A program made the position numbers and the translations under genes. Shown here in pieces: positions 2,421 to 55,560 of a stretch of DNA of 64,000 nucleotides. Source of the DNA: Pirellulales bacterium (GTDB taxonomy: Bacteria; Planctomycetota; Planctomycetia; Pirellulales; UBA1268); the NCBI GenBank assembly GCA_016776925.1, contig JADHSL010000007.1, forward strand, positions 4,821 to 68,820, given 5' to 3'. The notes under the pieces are model-generated. The model had not been told where the DNA came from, ran no database searches, and worked only from the letters and a program-made list of their open reading frames with translations. The stretch's first letter is position 1. Each line of letters begins with the position of its first letter.

Positions 2421-4604
2421 ATGGCAAAAGTTTGTCACACAACTCAGAACCACTCACATGGCCAACGCAGCCTTTCATCGCTGCAATTTGACGCCCCGTT
2501 ACCGTATGGTGCCATCCTTCAAGAAGGTGGATCCAATCGGGCAGACGGCGTTCAATTCGTCGTATTCAGTCGTCATGCAACCGCCATGCGGCTCCTCCTT
2601 TACGACACCCCTGAAGATGGTGAGCCCGTTGAAGTTATCTCATTCGACCCAACGCACGACCGATGGGGTGATGTCTGGAGCATTTTCGTTCCAGGGCTAA
2701 AGCACGGCCAACTGTATCATTTCCAGGCAGATGGCCCGTTCGACCCGTCAGCAGGACATCGATTCGACCCAACCGCGCGACTCGTTGACCCCTACGCAAA
2801 AGCTCTGGCGGGTCATTTTCTCCACCATGACGATAGGATCATCCGTCCGCCCAAAAGCGTCGTAGTAGATGATCGTTTCGATTGGCAGGGCGACAGACAC
2901 CTTCGCCATGAGTTGGCCGACACCATTATCTATGAACTCCATATTCGAGGATTCACGGCAAGCCCATCAAGTGGTGTGGCACATCCGGGAACCTACCTCG
3001 GAGTGATTGAAAAAATTCCATACCTAAAGAGCCTTGGCGTCACAGCAGTCGAACTCATGCCTATTCATGAATTCCCACGTGAATCTTTCGATGGCAATCG
3101 ACGCGACCATGAAAACTATTGGGGGTATGACCCAATAGCATTCTTTGCACCACATCAGGGCTACGCAACTTCAAACCAACCCGGTGGCCAGGTAACTGAA
3201 CTCAAGGAAATGGTGCGTGCTCTTCATGCGGCCGATATTGAAGTTATTCTTGATGTTGTTTTTAACCACACCGCAGAAGGCAGCGGGGATGGACCCACCT
3301 TCTCAATGAAGGGGCTTGAAAACAGCGTGTACTACATGCTGGACAATGAATCTGGTGACTACCATAACTTTTCTGGCTGCGGAAACACCGTGAATGCCAA
3401 CCACCCCGTCGTCAGGGAACTTATATGCCATTGCCTGCGTCACTGGGTACATAGCTATCACATCGATGGGTTTCGTTTTGATCTTGCCAGCATTCTGTCA
3501 CGAGACCGGAATGGGATCATTATTGAGAACCCGCCACTTATTGAGAGCATCACCGAAGACCAGACGCTCGCGGACACAAAATTGATTGCCGAGGCCTGGG
3601 ACGCTGCTGGTGCGTATCAGGTAGGCACATTTGCTACTTCACGCTGGGCCGAGTGGAATGGCCGGTATCGCGATGATGTCAGACGCTACTGGAGAGGGGA
3701 TGAAAACCAGACCGGCAACCTCGCCACTCGGCTAGCTGGGTCGAGTGATCTCTATGCTGGTGAGGACCGACAGCCGTATCACAGTGTGAATTTCATCACA
3801 TCACACGATGGATTTACACTGAATGATCTCGTGTGTTACGACCAGAAACACAATGATGCGAACGCAGAGCACAACCAAGACGGCGACAACAACAATTACT
3901 CATATAACTATGGTATTGAAGGACCCACCGAGGACGCGCACGTCGACTCAATCCGAGTCAAGCAAATACGCAACATGCTTTCAACATTGTTTCTGAGTCA
4001 GGGCGTTCCGATGCTGTTAGCGGGTGACGAATGCCGCAGAACACAACAGGGAAATAATAATGCCTATTGCCAAGATAACGCCATCTCCTGGTTCGACTGG
4101 AACCTACCACGTATTAACGCCGAACTTGTTGAGTTCACGAAAGCCCTCATCCACCAGCGGCTGAATAATCCCACGCTAAGGCGTCGAACGTTTCTACAGG
4201 GAGGATGTAGTGAACAGGGAGTCATACCTGACGTGGAGTGGTTTTCACCAGACGGTAGCCATGTCGACTGGTTTTCAGGTGAACCGAGTCTCATATGTTT
4301 CTTCGGTGCGCCAACAATGGACCAGCCCATCGCGAAAAATGACCGGGTAGCAGATGACCTTGCCGGGACCCCGCAGCACGTCCTTCTTTTTTGCAATGCT
4401 GGTCCGGAAACCCGACGGTTTCTGTTTCCATCATCGCCCGTCATCTTGCAGATGAATTGGAGTATTGCTGTCGACACACGCCAATCACACGATCAAATTC
4501 CGCCGCCTATACCGTTGAAATTCGACTCGACTCGTCCAATCACGCTGCCTGAACGCAGCCTTCTCTGCCTAACGGCCCCTACAACCGGCACTTTTGGCAA
4601 ATGA
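2421..4604 (+). CDS. glgX: glycogen debranching enzyme / isoamylase (GH13, GlgX type)
   Basis: GH13 conserved regions VILDVVFNHTAEG, GFRFDLASIL, EAWDAAG and FITSHDGFTLNDL. The N-terminal CBM48-like region reads GVQFVVFSRHATAMRLLLYD. I prefer the ATG at 2421 to the TTG at 2388. Confidence 0.9.
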   Translation: MAKVCHTTQNHSHGQRSLSSLQFDAPLPYGAILQEGGSNRADGVQFVVFSRHATAMRLLLYDTPEDGEPVEVISFDPTHDRWGDVWSIFVPGLKHGQLYHFQADGPFDPSAGHRFDPTARLVDPYAKALAGHFLHHDDRIIRPPKSVVVDDRFDWQGDRHLRHELADTIIYELHIRGFTASPSSGVAHPGTYLGVIEKIPYLKSLGVTAVELMPIHEFPRESFDGNRRDHENYWGYDPIAFFAPHQGYATSNQPGGQVTELKEMVRALHAADIEVILDVVFNHTAEGSGDGPTFSMKGLENSVYYMLDNESGDYHNFSGCGNTVNANHPVVRELICHCLRHWVHSYHIDGFRFDLASILSRDRNGIIIENPPLIESITEDQTLADTKLIAEAWDAAGAYQVGTFATSRWAEWNGRYRDDVRRYWRGDENQTGNLATRLAGSSDLYAGEDRQPYHSVNFITSHDGFTLNDLVCYDQKHNDANAEHNQDGDNNNYSYNYGIEGPTEDAHVDSIRVKQIRNMLSTLFLSQGVPMLLAGDECRRTQQGNNNAYCQDNAISWFDWNLPRINAELVEFTKALIHQRLNNPTLRRRTFLQGGCSEQGVIPDVEWFSPDGSHVDWFSGEPSLICFFGAPTMDQPIAKNDRVADDLAGTPQHVLLFCNAGPETRRFLFPSSPVILQMNWSIAVDTRQSHDQIPPPIPLKFDSTRPITLPERSLLCLTAPTTGTFGK

Positions 4605-4714
4605 CTGGCTTCTTCTGAACTCTCACTATATTCTTGGGTGTTGTTGCAACTGTTATACAGCTACTGTCTCAGCACTACTACACTTGAATTCTGACACCTT
4701 TGGAGAAGTTCATT

Positions 4715-5464
4715 ATGTCCCGTTGTCAATCTGGTCTTTGTCACATTGCAACCATCATGTTTGCAGGCGCTCCCATCCTCTTGGTTGCCTCGCTGATTCT
4801 AGTTACCGGCTGCGACCAAGTACAAAATCCAGAGGCAGACGCGACCACACAAGTTCAATCGCCCGCTCATGACGACCACGGACACGACGACCACGGACAC
4901 GACGAACACGAACATGACGACCACGAACATGACGACCACGAACATGACGACCACGGGCACGACGACCACGGGCACGACGACCACGGGCACGACGACCACG
5001 GGCACGGACACGAACTGCCTGCAACGGTTGAAGCAGCTATTAAGCAACTCAAAAAAGTAACAAATCAGGTTCGAGCAGCCCTGAAAGACGGTGAAACTGG
5101 CAAGGCTGACAGTCTGGTCCACTCCATTGGACATCTCATTGAGGACCTGAACGAAAAAATTGCCTCGGCCGACGTTGAACAAAAAGTTAAAGATGCAGCC
5201 ACCGCAGCTTCCGAAAAGATATTTGATGCATATGGTGAGCTTGATAGCGTACTTCACGGTGCCAAAGAAGAAATTGAAAACCTTCAATTTAGTGATTTTG
5301 GGCCAGCAATTACCAAAGCCACCAAAACTCTTGAAAGCCTACTTCTTGAAGCAAAAGAAGCGGTAACAGGAGAAACGGCAGAGGACAAGAAACCAAAGGA
5401 AAAGGAAGCGGCTGAACAAAATCCAGCTGACTCCGAAAAACCTAGCGAGAAGTCAGCGGAATAA
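4715..5464 (+). CDS. His/Asp-repeat lipoprotein, putative periplasmic divalent-metal-binding protein with a helical C-terminal domain
   Basis: GGAGAA lies 9 nt upstream of the ATG at 4715. Signal peptide with lipobox LILVTGC. Nine HDDH[G/E] pentapeptide repeats. The C-terminal part is an alpha-helical K/E-rich domain. Confidence 0.75.
   Translation: MSRCQSGLCHIATIMFAGAPILLVASLILVTGCDQVQNPEADATTQVQSPAHDDHGHDDHGHDEHEHDDHEHDDHEHDDHGHDDHGHDDHGHDDHGHGHELPATVEAAIKQLKKVTNQVRAALKDGETGKADSLVHSIGHLIEDLNEKIASADVEQKVKDAATAASEKIFDAYGELDSVLHGAKEEIENLQFSDFGPAITKATKTLESLLLEAKEAVTGETAEDKKPKEKEAAEQNPADSEKPSEKSAE
4868..5014 (+). repeat. in-frame tandem repeat, 9 x 15 nt (cay gac gam cac grr) plus a partial unit, encoding (HDDHG/E)n
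   Basis: Read directly from the sequence: catgacgaccacgga cacgacgaccacgga cacgacgaacacgaa catgacgaccacgaa (x2) catgacgaccacggg cacgacgaccacggg (x3) cacggacacgaa. Confidence 0.95.
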
Positions 5465-50831: not shown

Positions 50832-51458
50832 ATGCAACCCGATTGGGACCAGCGGTATCGTCAGGGAGATACACCGTGGGACAAAGGGCGGGCATCACCG
50901 GCATTGATCGCCTGGCTCCAAGAGAATCATGGGCGCATGACAGGGTCCGTTCTCATCCCTGGGTGCGGTACGGGACATGATGTACGCGCCATTGCCACTG
51001 CCGAACCAACGTCTTTTCCAGTTGGAATTGATATCTCGAGAACAGCTATTGAAGCGTGCCGTCAAAATAAGGTCCGTGGGAACGAACGGTACGAGGAAGA
51101 AAATCTTTTCTCACTGCCAAAGACTTTATTTGGGACATGTGATTGGCTGTGGGAACATACATGTTTCTGCGCAATTGACCCAAAGGAACGGCTGGCGTAC
51201 GTGTCTGCTGTCGCAACAAGTCTTAAACCCGAAGGTTTACTTCTGGGCATTTTCTATCTGAACCCACGGACGAGTGACAACGAAGCAAACAATGGCCCAC
51301 CCCACGGCACGACCCTTCAAGAACTAAAATCACTTTTTCTCACTGACGACCTCTTTTCGCTCATAGAAATAATGGTTCCCCGTGGCTGCTACCCGGAGAG
51401 AGAAGGTCGTGAACAGCTTCTGCTACTCCGAAGAACAAAAAACCCGGTCATATCGTAA
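50832..51458 (+). CDS. TPMT-family SAM-dependent methyltransferase (thiol/halide methyltransferase-like)
   Basis: WDQRYRQGDTPWDKGRASPAL and SAM motif I VLIPGCGTGHD. Confidence 0.75.
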   Translation: MQPDWDQRYRQGDTPWDKGRASPALIAWLQENHGRMTGSVLIPGCGTGHDVRAIATAEPTSFPVGIDISRTAIEACRQNKVRGNERYEEENLFSLPKTLFGTCDWLWEHTCFCAIDPKERLAYVSAVATSLKPEGLLLGIFYLNPRTSDNEANNGPPHGTTLQELKSLFLTDDLFSLIEIMVPRGCYPEREGREQLLLLRRTKNPVIS

Positions 51459-51672
51459 AAAATTAATAGTCTTGTTCGTGCTCGTCAGCCCCGACGATTC
51501 GCTCGAACCAAATCGCCATATCCACAGGATCAGGCAGACTGCTAAAATAGACTTGGTAGGGCAGCAATGCCCGACGAACGAGGTTTCTGACTCTGGTCAG
51601 AATGGTTCGCTCGGCGGCAGTCAGTGCAGTGGTTGCGACTGCTGAGAGTCTCGTAGTAAAGGAGGTGATCCA

Positions 51673-51723
51673 GTGACGTATGGTGACTGTACAGGTGAAT
51701 GTTTAGGTGGGTTTTCCTACTGA
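51673..51723 (+). CDS. candidate 16-codon leader mini-ORF (MTYGDCTGECLGGFSY)
   Basis: The GTG at 51673 lies 7 nt after GGAGG, within a 16-nt stretch AAAGGAGGTGATCCAG complementary to a canonical 16S 3' tail. The TGA is at 51721-51723. There is no independent coding evidence. Confidence 0.3.
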   Translation: MTYGDCTGECLGGFSY

Positions 51724-51793
51724 ACAATCCGCCTGGTTGACGGGCTCATGCCTCCGGGCGTGTGATACCTCTCAACGGCATTCATTTTGACAA

Positions 51794-51825
51794 CTGCCGC
51801 CCCATTTTGGGGCGGCAGTTTTTTT
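51794..51825 (+). terminator. rho-independent terminator / attenuator immediately upstream of the MFS gene
   Basis: CTGCCGCCCC-ATTTT-GGGGCGGCAG followed by TTTTTTT. The stem is 10-11 bp and GC-rich. Confidence 0.7.
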
Positions 51826-51843
51826 CTGTGTATAGTCTTGGTT

Positions 51844-53238
51844 ATGACACCACAGGTATTCGCCACTAGCACAGCAAAACGGAACGTCCGCCTCTTCATG
51901 GCGTTCCGGATTCTCTTCAACATCCGGTTTTACTACCCGGTCTTTATGGTGATGTTTCTCCGCTATGGGATCACCTTGGAACAGTTCGGCTTGCTGAATG
52001 CTGTCTGGGCAGTTGTTATCGTTTTGCTCGAGGTCCCTTCTGGAGCACTCGCTGATCTTCTTGGCAGGAAAGCCCTTCTCGTTGCGGCTGCTATCATGAT
52101 GACTCTCGAAATGTTGCTGCTCGCAATTGTCCCCATTGGTTCATCATGGGTATTCCCAGCCCTTCTTCTCAACCGAATTCTCAGTGGCGCAGCTGAGGCA
52201 TTCGCCTCAGGCGCTGACGAAGCACTTGCCTTTGACTCTCTTAAAGCAGCCGGGAAGGATGGTGACTGGCCACGAGTCCTGGAACGGCTGATGCAAGTCG
52301 GTGGACTCGCTACCATCTTTGCTATGGTCACCGGTTCACTTGTTTACAGCCCTGACCTTATCCAAGTGGTGATGAACTGGGCTGGCTTTGCATCGCAGAT
52401 AACTCTCGATGACACATTTCGTCTTCCTGTCTGGCTCACATTCTTTTCGGGATGTGGGGCAATCCTTGTCACGCTGTCAATGCGTGAATTACCGCGGGAC
52501 CACTCTGAAAACAATATTACGCTGCTTGATCCTTTCAAACAAACGCTCCGGACAGGCTATTGGATCCTTACCAATCCGTTGGTGCTTGTCGTCATTGCTG
52601 CTGGTGTTCTTTTCGACCAACCAATTCGTCAACTGCTTGTCGTCTCAAGTCAACTCTATGCCCGGATTGAAATACCTGTGCTCTACTTCGGCATCATCAG
52701 TGCTGGAACGGCTGTCATTGGGCTCCTCGCTGCAACACCCATGCGCCGGCTTGCAACAAGTCAATCACCAAGAACCAATTTTCTGTTGCTTTTCGGTACA
52801 GTCACACTGGGACTTTTCGGAACTGCACTGCTTATTCCATGGTGGGGTGTTGGCTTTTTTATGCTTCTCTCATTATCAATGCGGCTCCTGATGTTTTTGC
52901 AGAGCCACTACCTGAACCAATTGGTTGACTCCAAACATCGTGCAACCGTGCTGAGCTTTCGCGGCCTGGCCGTCAATATCAGCTACGGTTTCATGAGTAT
53001 CGCTTTCGCAGTTGCCGTCACTGCGGTAGAGAAAGCGGACCCGACAACCACTCAGGCGGCTGCCTTCGATTGGGTCATTCGATTGCTTCCGTGGTATTTC
53101 CTTCTCGCGGTCCTCGTCTTTGTAGTCTGGGCCCAACGGCGAATCCGTTATGACACCAGAATAAACAGACCTGACGGATTCACCCCAACTACTGATTCGT
53201 CCAGCGACACTCGTACACCATCCCCTCCTTCGGTGTAA
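51844..53238 (+). CDS. MFS transporter
   Basis: 12-TM profile with the MFS loop motif EVPSGALADLLGRK. ATG at 51844. The track start at 51787 would translate the terminator hairpin. Confidence 0.8.
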   Translation: MTPQVFATSTAKRNVRLFMAFRILFNIRFYYPVFMVMFLRYGITLEQFGLLNAVWAVVIVLLEVPSGALADLLGRKALLVAAAIMMTLEMLLLAIVPIGSSWVFPALLLNRILSGAAEAFASGADEALAFDSLKAAGKDGDWPRVLERLMQVGGLATIFAMVTGSLVYSPDLIQVVMNWAGFASQITLDDTFRLPVWLTFFSGCGAILVTLSMRELPRDHSENNITLLDPFKQTLRTGYWILTNPLVLVVIAAGVLFDQPIRQLLVVSSQLYARIEIPVLYFGIISAGTAVIGLLAATPMRRLATSQSPRTNFLLLFGTVTLGLFGTALLIPWWGVGFFMLLSLSMRLLMFLQSHYLNQLVDSKHRATVLSFRGLAVNISYGFMSIAFAVAVTAVEKADPTTTQAAAFDWVIRLLPWYFLLAVLVFVVWAQRRIRYDTRINRPDGFTPTTDSSSDTRTPSPPSV

Positions 53239-55273
53239 TAACTGACCACCCAATCAAAGAACCAAAAGGGTGATCAATTGCAAAACGCGGGTCCATGGGA
53301 ATTGGTGGCGATGACTTGTCAACCGGATATCGAACCAGTCTATATGTTGAATAGGGCATGTCTTCCGGAAAAAGAAGCCACGACGTAAGGAGTTCTGTCC
53401 GTTTATTTACAAAAAACGGCAGGTGTCCAGTCATCGAAGGCGGGACCGTAGCCATTGTCATTGCCTGAAGCGTGACCCGCTCCCCTATCGGCACACCTGA
53501 TAGATCGAATACGACTTCATGCAACGCGTGCCTAAGATCATTGATTTTCTCAGGCCCATCTATGGGATGTAACACTCGCTTAAAAATACCCTGCGGCTGG
53601 TTTTCCGGTTGCCTAATCTCAATGACATTCATTGGGAAAACCCCAGTGAAAACTACCTGTCGATCACCTTCATATTCTTCATTAAATCGGACAACGATCC
53701 GATCCCAGGCCGTGACATACCCTCTCGAATCCTCATCTCGTGCGTTTGGACTGAATTCGCGGAGGTCAAAAATCCTGCTCTGTGAGAGAATTTCCACGCC
53801 TTCAAGCTGGGCTTTCGCAGGCCCAACTAATTCTCCTAATGGAGAAACCTTCCAATCTGTAGCTGCGGTTCCTTCAACAAGATCCAGTATCTGTCGAATA
53901 TCTGGATCGCCCATGGCAATCGAATCAATCACGGTGGTAAGAAGTTGTGCGTGTTTTCGCAATTGATAAACATAGACTGGACCGCAGACAAACAACACAA
54001 ACGCGATTGCAACAAATACGTAGCTTGGCCAATCTCTGAAGTCAAGAAGTGTTGACCATACTCTTCGACAACTTGAATTACGAAGTTGACGAGAATTCTC
54101 AGTAGCGGTTGAAGGTCCTTGGCTCGACATGAGATTCTTGCTGTCCGGGTTCCCTTGAGGACGCTGGGTTTCAGGACATGGATCCCATGGGGCTAGGTCA
54201 CAGTATTTATCCTTCACAAGCCCAATCTCACCGCAGATTTTCTTCGTGACTTCAAACCCATGACGTACTAATGCATTCACTTCGTAATCTGAAAACCTAT
54301 CAAGATCTGTTCGAATGGATTGCACCTCCGCCTGAATGACTGGATGCTGCGCAGTTGAGTCTTCTTCTGGTGAAATTATTTCCGTGATCGGCAGAAAAGA
54401 AAAACCGGGCTGCTGACCAAAGTTTTCACTTTCCAACTGCCACACACGATCCCAAAGAATGTCTGATGCTCGGATCGATTGCCCAATAAAACCCAGTGAT
54501 TGATCTCCAAGAATTTGAAACGGCTTGCCTGCATCACTCACAAGAACCCGATCAAACGCTCCAACCTCATCAGCCAGCCATGCAAACGCTCGTGTACCCA
54601 AATTGTCATAAACGCCACCGTCTGTGAATGACTCTGTTGGAAACTGGCCTTCGCGAACACCGAGATCTTTTGCAGTTATTTCAACCGGCGGAAAGAATCC
54701 TGGGAACGCCGATGAAGCACCAACTACTTGAGGTAGTGTCGCCATTTGACCCGGAATACATTCAAAATCAAATTTCCCAGCTTTCTTTCGTTGCTGAATG
54801 TAGAGACCCTTTTTGTTAAACACCGACAACACACCATCACTTACATTTGTCGCCAGTATGTGAAGCCTTGGCATGTCCGGGAGTTCATACAAGCACGTGT
54901 CGCCATAAAGCATGTCGCGATAATAGCGTTCTAGAACTGCGTTTGGTGTAACGAATCCAATTTCACGACGAGCCAGCTTTCCGAAGAGACGAAGGCTATA
55001 AATAAATGGCAAACGTCTAGCGATATGGTTGCGAACATCAAACTGCACAAAGTCAATAATCTCAGATGCCGCTGCCGCAAACTCTTCTTCATCACCGGTG
55101 TACTTGTCCCAATTCAACACAAGATGGGCGGCGAGGATCGATCCACCAGAGACCGAAGCAATATCACTGACATCCTGCAATATCCCCGCGTCCCTGAGGT
55201 AGCGAACGACGCCAAGATGGTAGAGGGTTGCACGAAAACCGCCACCCGAAAGAGCCAGTCCTAATTTTGGCAT
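53189..55273 (-). CDS. patatin-like phospholipase domain protein with one TM helix and an uncharacterised C-terminal domain
   Basis: GLALSGGGFRATLY (oxyanion GGGxR), serine lipase motif SVSGGS and catalytic Asp region DGGVYDNLG. One TM helix (YVFVAIAFVLFVCGPVYVY). The ATG at 55273 has GAAGGAGA upstream. Confidence 0.85.
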   Translation of the reverse strand: MPKLGLALSGGGFRATLYHLGVVRYLRDAGILQDVSDIASVSGGSILAAHLVLNWDKYTGDEEEFAAAASEIIDFVQFDVRNHIARRLPFIYSLRLFGKLARREIGFVTPNAVLERYYRDMLYGDTCLYELPDMPRLHILATNVSDGVLSVFNKKGLYIQQRKKAGKFDFECIPGQMATLPQVVGASSAFPGFFPPVEITAKDLGVREGQFPTESFTDGGVYDNLGTRAFAWLADEVGAFDRVLVSDAGKPFQILGDQSLGFIGQSIRASDILWDRVWQLESENFGQQPGFSFLPITEIISPEEDSTAQHPVIQAEVQSIRTDLDRFSDYEVNALVRHGFEVTKKICGEIGLVKDKYCDLAPWDPCPETQRPQGNPDSKNLMSSQGPSTATENSRQLRNSSCRRVWSTLLDFRDWPSYVFVAIAFVLFVCGPVYVYQLRKHAQLLTTVIDSIAMGDPDIRQILDLVEGTAATDWKVSPLGELVGPAKAQLEGVEILSQSRIFDLREFSPNARDEDSRGYVTAWDRIVVRFNEEYEGDRQVVFTGVFPMNVIEIRQPENQPQGIFKRVLHPIDGPEKINDLRHALHEVVFDLSGVPIGERVTLQAMTMATVPPSMTGHLPFFVNKRTELLTSWLLFPEDMPYSTYRLVRYPVDKSSPPIPMDPRFAIDHPFGSLIGWSVITPKEGMVYECRWTNQ

Positions 55274-55560
55274 GGTGGTAATGTCTCCTTCTCGTTGTGT
55301 TTCAATATCTTGTTTTTGCAGAGCGTCGAACACTGTATCTTAGGATGCGACTTTGACGGATGGGCAGTCTTTTCGGCCTGCGGTCTCGCTATCTCCTGAT
55401 CGTACGTCCAACTGTAGGGATCGTGCTGGTTCTCGGCCCCAAGTTATGCCTCCTGACAGGATGCACAACCACTGCCATACTCCTCTCGTACCTTCATTGA
55501 TCTGGTTATTTTTCGGAACCGTAAGCATTCAAGTAGTCCAAAACACGGAGACACGTGCAC

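Follow-up and report, generated by a model that had tools for sequence, protein, structure and literature searches.

We analyzed a 64,000-nucleotide (nt) stretch of the Pirellulales bacterium contig JADHSL010000007.1 (hereafter the window) and focus here on a conserved element at ~51556-51825 on the forward (+) strand. The element lies between an operon on the same strand (SDF ... TPMT-like methyltransferase gene), which ends at 51458, and a gene for an MFS_1 transporter. It combines a long complement of the 16S ribosomal RNA (rRNA) 3' tail, a short open reading frame (mini-ORF) and a strong terminator, and we consider it likely that it is an independent small gene, predicted to encode a ~270-nt structured small messenger RNA (mRNA) of the rre type. 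The features of the region, in order along the strand, are:

51521-51548 (+): promoter-like site, with a -35-like TCCACA (51521-26), a 16-nt spacer and an extended -10, TGcTAAAAT
51540-51548 (+): the extended -10 itself, TGCTAAAAT, identified by promoter scan and conservation
51556-51575 (+): P0 hairpin of the type GGTAGGGC AGCA ATGCCCGAC, at the predicted RNA 5' end
51585-51602 (+): P1 hairpin, TTCTGAC/GTCAGAA
51610-51646 (+): P2 stem-loop, with outer stem CTCGGC/GCTGAG, inner stem GCAGTC/GGTTGC and the 8-nt loop AGTGCAGT (51623-30)
51613-51620 (+): GGCGGCAG box, inside P2 as part of its 5' strand
51624-51692 (+): pseudoknot, P2 loop bases GTGCAGT (51624-30) with ACTGTAC (51686-92), codons 5-7 of the mini-ORF
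51658-51673 (+): extended Shine-Dalgarno (SD) sequence AAAGGAGGTGATCCAG, 16 nt, exact complement of the canonical 16S 3' tail
51673-51720 (+): mini-ORF MTYGDCTGECLGGFSY, GTG start, 16 codons, stop TGA at 51721-51723
51695-51785 (+): P3 long-range helix, GTGAATGTT (51695-703, mini-ORF codons 8-11) with GGCATTCAT (51777-85)
51704-51736 (+): near-invariant block TAGGTGGGTTTTCCTACTGAACAATCCGCCTGG, which holds the stop codon
51736-51776 (+): P5 variable hairpin, GTTGA...TCAAC, with apical stem CATGCC/GGCGTG
51792-51825 (+): intrinsic terminator AACTGCCGCCCC/GGGGCGGCAGTT, with a 13-bp stem (51792-51820), a 3-nt loop and T7 (51819-25)
51831-51836 (+): TATAGT, 7 nt before the MFS ATG, seen in the alignment
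51844-53238 (+): MFS_1 transporter gene, 464 amino acids, neighbour of the RNA

The 16-nt complement lies exactly where an earlier note on this DNA had placed it and is perfect; the accompanying claim that it far exceeds any other SD site in the window also holds, the runners-up among matches to the tail being 9 nt long on either strand. By chance, an exact 16-mer of this kind would be expected about 3e-5 times in 128 kb. These comparisons assume the canonical tail, CUGGAUCACCUCCUUU, because the window contains no rRNA gene by Rfam scan. The base G51673 is both the last of AAAGGAGGTGATCCAG and the first of the GTG. The GTG mini-ORF described earlier is present and strongly conserved, and the check that the note had proposed, its conservation upstream of MFS orthologues, gives a length of 16 codons in all Planctomycetaceae copies examined.

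The borders of the predicted transcript are given by the extended -10 and the terminator. The pattern TGCTAnnAT is kept in relatives whose sequence reaches the site, including those with other upstream genes (its form in loci L135 and L144 is TGTTAAAAT), and the predicted transcription start falls at ~51555-57. With this conserved -10 of its own, the RNA is predicted to start near 51556 and to span ~270 nt (~51556-51825); the region previously described as a 385-nt leader does hold a conserved element, but it is better described as this shorter transcript with its own extended -10 at 51540-48. The terminator stem (-25.5 kcal/mol) has 100% of its alignment cells paired and one compensated change among 22 Planctomycetaceae sequences, and its arms covary across Planctomycetota when own and cross pairings are compared (0/2000 permutations). 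The strong terminator with its T7 before the MFS gene is thus real and strongly conserved, as had been proposed, with a gap of 18 nt, rather than 19 nt, from the T-run to the ATG. A second -35-like hexamer, TTGACA at 51787-92, was rejected as a promoter because no -10 lies at the proper spacing.

To place the element among its relatives, we compared contigs with MFS orthologues at 92, 87, 77 and 73% identity. In all contigs with 73-92% orthologues the element lies directly upstream of the MFS gene. It is kept in L003-L006 despite a wholly different set of upstream genes (LacI, SBP_bac_10), and in L007, which has an intergenic gap of 720 nt. The alignment reveals a ~95-nt core around the motif and mini-ORF that is almost invariant, flanked by hairpins that vary by compensatory substitutions; an 88-nt core is 92-99% identical, compared with 39-65% at the third codon positions of the MFS gene. 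The differences within the mini-ORF are few and non-synonymous (Y3 to Q/H, E9 to V, L11 to S, Y16 to N/R/C) and, taken together with the nucleotide conservation, they indicate constraint on the RNA sequence and not merely on the peptide. A metagenome scan with TTTTCCNNCTGAACAATCCGCC, a block that excludes the SD motif, retrieved 22 true members independently, and GTAGTAAAGGAGGTGATCCAGTGA is unchanged in 20 of the 20 whose sequence reaches it. Each of the 22 has the terminator followed 16-20 nt on by an ATG start, in the context ATGAC except in L148 (ATGGA) and L137 (ATGAT). Orthologues of the MFS protein at ~60% identity (L008-L011) are without the element, so the family cannot be extended through this protein.

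We then scored an explicit structure on an alignment of 22 distinct Planctomycetaceae sequences, with shuffles and slid partners as controls. Over the whole structure 87% of cells are paired, compared with 37-50% for slid partners, and none of 500 shuffles reaches the observed values; in 27 pairs both partners have changed, and compensatory changes occur in six helix segments (five stem-loops). G-U pairs are frequent in the covarying helices, which settles that the functional strand is +; the minus-strand reading frames at 51542-51727 and 51717-51923 were disregarded on this ground. All eight pairs of P0 are compensatory (92.6% of cells paired), as are four of the seven in P1, which is supported also in a Planctomycetota-wide alignment. 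P2 is paired in 100% of cells, with compensatory changes in 3/6 outer and 3/6 inner pairs, and P5 has them in 4/5 pairs of its outer stem (100% paired) and 3/6 of its apical stem. The covariation test for which the earlier note had called supports P0, P1, P2, P5 and the terminator, and it reveals no covariation for the alternative pairings proposed there.

Two further pairings involve the mini-ORF directly. The pseudoknot encloses the SD and the start codon; it is nearly invariant in Planctomycetaceae (97% paired), and the homologues from Phycisphaerales show covariation at this pairing, with GACAA/TTGTC and GTCACA/TGTGAC among the examples. For six divergent sequences of that group (L038, L043, L061, L068, L104 and L106) the rank of the own partner is 0-1 of 30, and 0/2000 permutations attain the observed mean. 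The P3 helix, whose strands can also be written GUGAAUGUU (codons 8-11) and GGCAUUCAU (just before the terminator), encloses the stop codon, the conserved block and P5. Its cells are 99.5% paired, compared with 33-56% in slid controls, but P3 is almost invariant in Planctomycetaceae and therefore uninformative when taken alone; for its positional equivalent in Phycisphaerales (GGGCTGCGC/GCGCAGCCC) the own partner beats others (0/2000). Together, these pairings place the SD and start codon in a pseudoknot-closed loop and leave about half of the ORF paired to distant segments. We found no supported pairing partner for the block at 51704-51736, which is specific to the Planctomycetaceae version, and a small hairpin within it (TAGG/CCTA) was unsupported by the alignment test. 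A conserved internal anti-SD (CCUCC) in the P5 loop was also rejected, since relatives differ in the sequence of this loop.

The SD and start codon also recur far outside this family. We scanned one genome per species for the 18-mer AAGGAGGTGATCCAGTGA, a fixed pattern that requires GTGA and thus does not capture natural variation of the motif. The scan returned at least 120 matches in species genomes, a sample short of a complete taxonomic map, against ~17 expected by chance, and nearly all matches listed fall in a few conserved small-gene scaffolds (example loci are L040:4522-4539, L021:1515-1532, L018:1633-1650, L022:4108-4125, L091:7127-7144 and L078:90-107). The scaffolds are:

Planctomycetaceae: mini-ORF of 16 codons
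Phycisphaerales: mini-ORF of 11-13 codons, with the architecture of the window element (P1, CGGCGG box, P2, pseudoknot, ORF, P3, terminator)
Acidobacteriota: mini-ORF always of 6 codons, with a conserved TATAAT-like -10, two hairpins and a terminator
Betaproteobacteria (including Nitrosomonadales): mini-ORF of 23-27 codons
Krumholzibacteriia, Thermoanaerobaculia and Binatia: mini-ORF of 11-15 codons
Myxococcota: mini-ORF of 13 codons
Bradymonadaceae: mini-ORF of 21 codons
Caulobacterales: mini-ORF of 21-23 codons, the sole type known to Rfam (CC2171)

Across these clades the ORF ranges from 6 to 27 codons, and within each type its length is fixed or changes by whole codons. The peptide varies within types, and TGA, TAA and TAG interchange at the same position; the Phycisphaerales mini-ORF, for instance, shows whole-codon indels and all three stops. 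A fixed length combined with interchangeable stops suggests that the ribosome reads the frame. The invariant 18-mer, which is the 16S-tail complement plus the start codon, is found in at least eight otherwise unrelated RNA scaffolds. Neighbours were counted from Pfam-confirmed genes because naive ORF calling is noisy in high-GC metagenome-assembled genomes (MAGs), where it yields spurious overlapping ORFs. For the matches listed, 70 Pfam families are represented among the 101 downstream neighbours, with at most two loci per family; a single neighbour is MFS_1, and the downstream genes lie ~50:50 on either strand. Unrelated neighbours in either orientation indicate stand-alone genes, not leaders.

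It is instructive to compare these elements with the rre (ribosome-regulated expression) genes. In Bradyrhizobium, the rreB gene stands alone, with a promoter and a terminator of its own, and yields a 165-nt mRNA (Hahn et al. 2016, RNA Biol 14:1353, PMC5711450). A stretch of 17 nt, the G of the GTG included, is perfectly complementary to the 16S 3' end, and there is a 14-codon small ORF (sORF); the mRNA co-sediments with 30S subunits and binds them tightly, and it is translated weakly (PMC5711450). Its half-life rises from 10 to 37 min once the start codon is removed, indicating start-codon-dependent decay, while its overexpression leaves growth unaffected and no function is known (PMC5711450). 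The described sORFs have 14 and 18 codons, in rreB of Bradyrhizobiaceae and rreR of Rhodobacterales, and their conservation does not extend beyond a clade; a published search reported analogues only in four alphaproteobacterial orders, with a genomic context conserved within families and not between them (PMC5711450). Within the library searched, we found no follow-up on the rre genes; for the motif string it returned only mentions of 16S primers, and for the 15-mer including GTG nothing.

The window element resembles these RNAs in several respects. It has a perfect complement of the 16S 3' end (16 nt with the canonical tail assumed, compared with 16-17 nt), the last complementary base starts the GTG of a short sORF (16 codons here), and a promoter of its own and a Rho-independent terminator are predicted and conserved. 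Its sORF and its MFS neighbour are conserved within Planctomycetaceae, with unrelated neighbours in Phycisphaerales and the other types. At the level of sequence, then, the element has every feature that defines the rre class, and it is most likely a new, planctomycete version of this known but obscure kind. Unlike the rre RNAs, it contains a pseudoknot and a long-range helix that pair the ORF, and it adjoins an MFS gene; the mini-ORF peptides are also unrelated. Because RreB and RreR are themselves unrelated in sequence, common descent is no strict criterion for the class.

A second known RNA, the Caulobacter small RNA (sRNA) CC2171 (Rfam RF01867), opens its consensus with GAAAGGAGGUGAUCCAGUG, the same 18-mer, followed by a short ORF and a terminator. 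The window matches this model with 21.0 bits (E = 0.028), below the gathering threshold of 75 bits, whereas a genuine Caulobacterales copy scores 77 bits; the weak match drew our attention because the consensus begins with the shared 18-mer. The scaffold and ORF differ, and only motif and terminator align. At gathering thresholds an Rfam scan of the whole window gave no matches, and a permissive scan added nothing but sub-threshold sRNA models, in which the terminator made up most of the alignment.

These observations suggest how the element may work. Transcription would begin at the extended -10 and end at the strong intrinsic terminator, as predicted from sequence and conservation. In the transcript, the 16-nt stretch would pair with the whole single-stranded 16S 3' tail and, by analogy with the rreB experiments, dock the 30S subunit very tightly. 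With the GTG overlapping the last paired base, and half of the ORF apparently locked in the covariation-supported pseudoknot and P3, initiation and elongation would be slow, and each passage of a ribosome would unzip these pairings. What matters is probably the interaction of the RNA with the ribosome, ribosome-dependent refolding or RNA decay, rather than the peptide, since the nucleotide conservation exceeds what a peptide needs and across clades only the length and stop of the ORF are kept. Ribosome engagement is probably central to the element, given that related clades keep both the length and the stop of the ORF and that rreB provides an experimental precedent. The MFS gene would be a conserved neighbour that at most receives read-through transcription.

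Several observations weigh against the rre-type reading. The element belongs to another phylum, Planctomycetota; it is ~270 nt long rather than the 165 nt of rreB, and ~100 nt of structured 5' region (P0-P2) precede its SD, compared with ~8 nt in rreB. Outside the 18-mer ribosome-binding module and the terminator it has no sequence similarity to rreB, rreR or CC2171, and as it is the 16S sequence that dictates the shared module, the kinship could be convergence and not common descent. The host's own 16S 3' end lies outside the window, and thermodynamic folding leaves the motif only moderately accessible (mean unpaired probability 0.31-0.57). Finally, all ~25 Planctomycetaceae loci whose sequence extends to the MFS gene have it 16-20 nt beyond the terminator, including those with broken upstream synteny; no independent MFS promoter is conserved in Planctomycetaceae, and no two-hexamer promoter was found in L003 or L007. 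Such an arrangement would suit a role in cis, and the MFS gene may therefore depend on read-through.

The last of these points also fits the explanation favored in the earlier note, a ribosome-mediated transcription attenuator in which translation of, or stalling on, the mini-ORF decides whether the MFS terminator forms, via the GGCGGCAG box or a freed CGGCA. The layout of short ORF with SD, terminator and gene is indeed that of leader-peptide attenuators (trpL/rnTrpL of Sinorhizobium, which shows that such RNAs are also capable of acting in trans, and the antibiotic-inducible erm/cat leaders), and a ribosome translating the ORF would pull apart P3, the 3' strand of which borders on the terminator. 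The box lies where it had been placed (51613-20) and, as a duplicate of the terminator's 3' arm, can pair with CTGCCGCC in 98.9% of cells, but this pairing shows no compensatory change. The sole informative change in the terminator (CTACCGCC/GGCGGTAG; L002, L151, L155) is offset by a second change within the terminator itself and leaves a C-A mismatch against the box, whose two variable positions covary in Watson-Crick fashion with the 3' strand of P2 and are only wobble-compatible with the terminator arm. In Phycisphaerales the own-versus-cross signal for box and terminator is marginal (95/2000; 33/2000 with all sequences). The other proposed switch, between CCGCCTGG and CCGGGCG (CGCCUGG:CCGGGCG; at 51729-36 and 51754-60, one base higher than first given), is not backed by covariation, and the 3' strand that it would need is part of P5, which does covary. 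Of the mutually exclusive pairings over the ORF end that mark leader-peptide attenuators, none is supported here, and the element has no regulatory codon run; to our knowledge, no known attenuator has an SD approaching the length of AAAGGAGGTGATCCAG. The ORF stop lies ~70 nt upstream of the terminator, which is very strong (-25.5 kcal/mol, U7), and the RNA has its own -10. Outside one Planctomycetes family these RNAs are tied to no gene class: homologues in Phycisphaerales and analogues elsewhere adjoin unrelated genes, about half on the opposite strand, with the one MFS_1 neighbour among the 101 other loci listed, and the ~60%-identity MFS orthologues do without the element. The TATAGT 7 nt before the ATG, conserved with its context TGTATAGTCT (51829-51838) only in a low-GC Planctomycetaceae subgroup and absent in L003, L007, L137, L140 and L142, could be the -10 of a separate, leaderless MFS mRNA overlapping the 3' end of the small RNA. 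We regard attenuation of the MFS gene, with expression that depends on read-through, as unlikely.

Among the alternatives that the earlier note held in reserve, a small RNA comes closest to the evidence. A purely non-coding version of it, an sRNA or a ligand- or protein-binding, riboswitch-like RNA in which the 16-mer serves structure or target binding and the mini-ORF is incidental, would account for nucleotide conservation beyond coding needs, for the elaborate covarying structure with its pseudoknot, and for peptides that are not conserved between clades. It leaves unexplained the clade-wise fixed ORF length with its in-frame stop, the interchange of TGA, TAA and TAG, the whole-codon indels, and an invariant 18-mer that is exactly 16S-tail complement plus start codon in at least eight unrelated scaffolds; moreover, rreB is translated and 30S-bound (PMC5711450). 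The riboswitch variant raised earlier finds neither an Rfam match at gathering thresholds nor a consistent downstream gene family, and we judge the non-coding explanation as a whole improbable. Still further from the data is the suggestion that the region is a long 3' untranslated region with the terminator of the upstream operon. The strand is the same, and the interval 51458-51540 contains no predicted terminator, so that read-through from the operon may likewise stop at the 51792-51825 terminator; but the element and its conserved -10 are kept in L003-L006 behind entirely different genes, the element of L007 is 720 nt from the upstream gene, and the Phycisphaerales homologues have other neighbours. 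This explanation appears very improbable.

If the rre-type reading is correct, a device so far regarded as an alphaproteobacterial curiosity without known function, the small mRNA with an extended SD, is now found in Planctomycetota, where the RNA around it is much larger and a covarying pseudoknot locks the mini-ORF. The identical 18-nt module marks conserved genes that stand alone in at least seven further bacterial lineages; the published rre genes and CC2171 cover Alphaproteobacteria only. This broad multi-phylum spread is the most interesting by-product of the analysis, and the recurrence with a clade-fixed mini-ORF length, down to six codons, points to an overlooked general function centred on the ribosome. 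A bolder proposal, to which we give only limited credence, is that GAAGGAGGUGAUCCA-GUG defines an ancient, or repeatedly invented, class of single-copy 30S-docking mini-ORF RNAs with a ribosome-centred job rather than a peptide as their purpose; in Planctomycetaceae the RNA would in addition have been wired to the MFS gene by ribosome-dependent read-through of the terminator. Such a class may span Planctomycetota, Acidobacteriota, Alpha- and Betaproteobacteria, Myxococcota, Krumholzibacteriota and Binatia, with ORFs down to 6 codons; its RNAs might sense or buffer free 30S subunits, or guard or proof-read the 16S 3' tail. Many independent scaffolds are now available for comparative and experimental study. 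For annotation, the element is a warning that SD, mini-ORF and terminator do not always make up the leader of the next gene.

The start of the MFS gene at ATG 51844 is supported by its 73-92% orthologues, which have the same length (~464 amino acids) with full coverage; its homologues are named Planctomycetia or Planctomycetaceae, and the genome behind the window is marine and Planctomycetaceae-like. This gene (+, ending at 53238) overlaps convergently by 50 nt (53189-53238) with a patatin-like gene (-, 53189-55333), and the convergent arrangement is the same in L001-L007.

Some observations concern individual copies elsewhere. Adjacency to transfer RNA (tRNA) genes, as for rreB, is not enriched (13/120 loci listed); in L062, tRNA-Gly lies right next to the element, an arrangement also known for rreB in B. 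japonicum. In L079, a Caulobacterales MAG, the CC2171 copy lies ~1.7 kb from the gene for transfer-messenger RNA on the same strand (2572-2770, 4476-4816). MAGs labelled Verrucomicrobiia carry the Acidobacteriota-type element and one labelled Enterobacterales the Myxococcota-type (L065:3407-3424, L088:7399-7416, L067:7446-7463), which could reflect mis-binning or horizontal transfer. Phycisphaerales copies have a pyrimidine tract, CUCUUU, 3-4 nt before AAGGAG (L051:503-740, L095:2999-3236, L101:6627-6864); it could fold back on the SD, resembling the SD-containing first stem-loop predicted for rreB.

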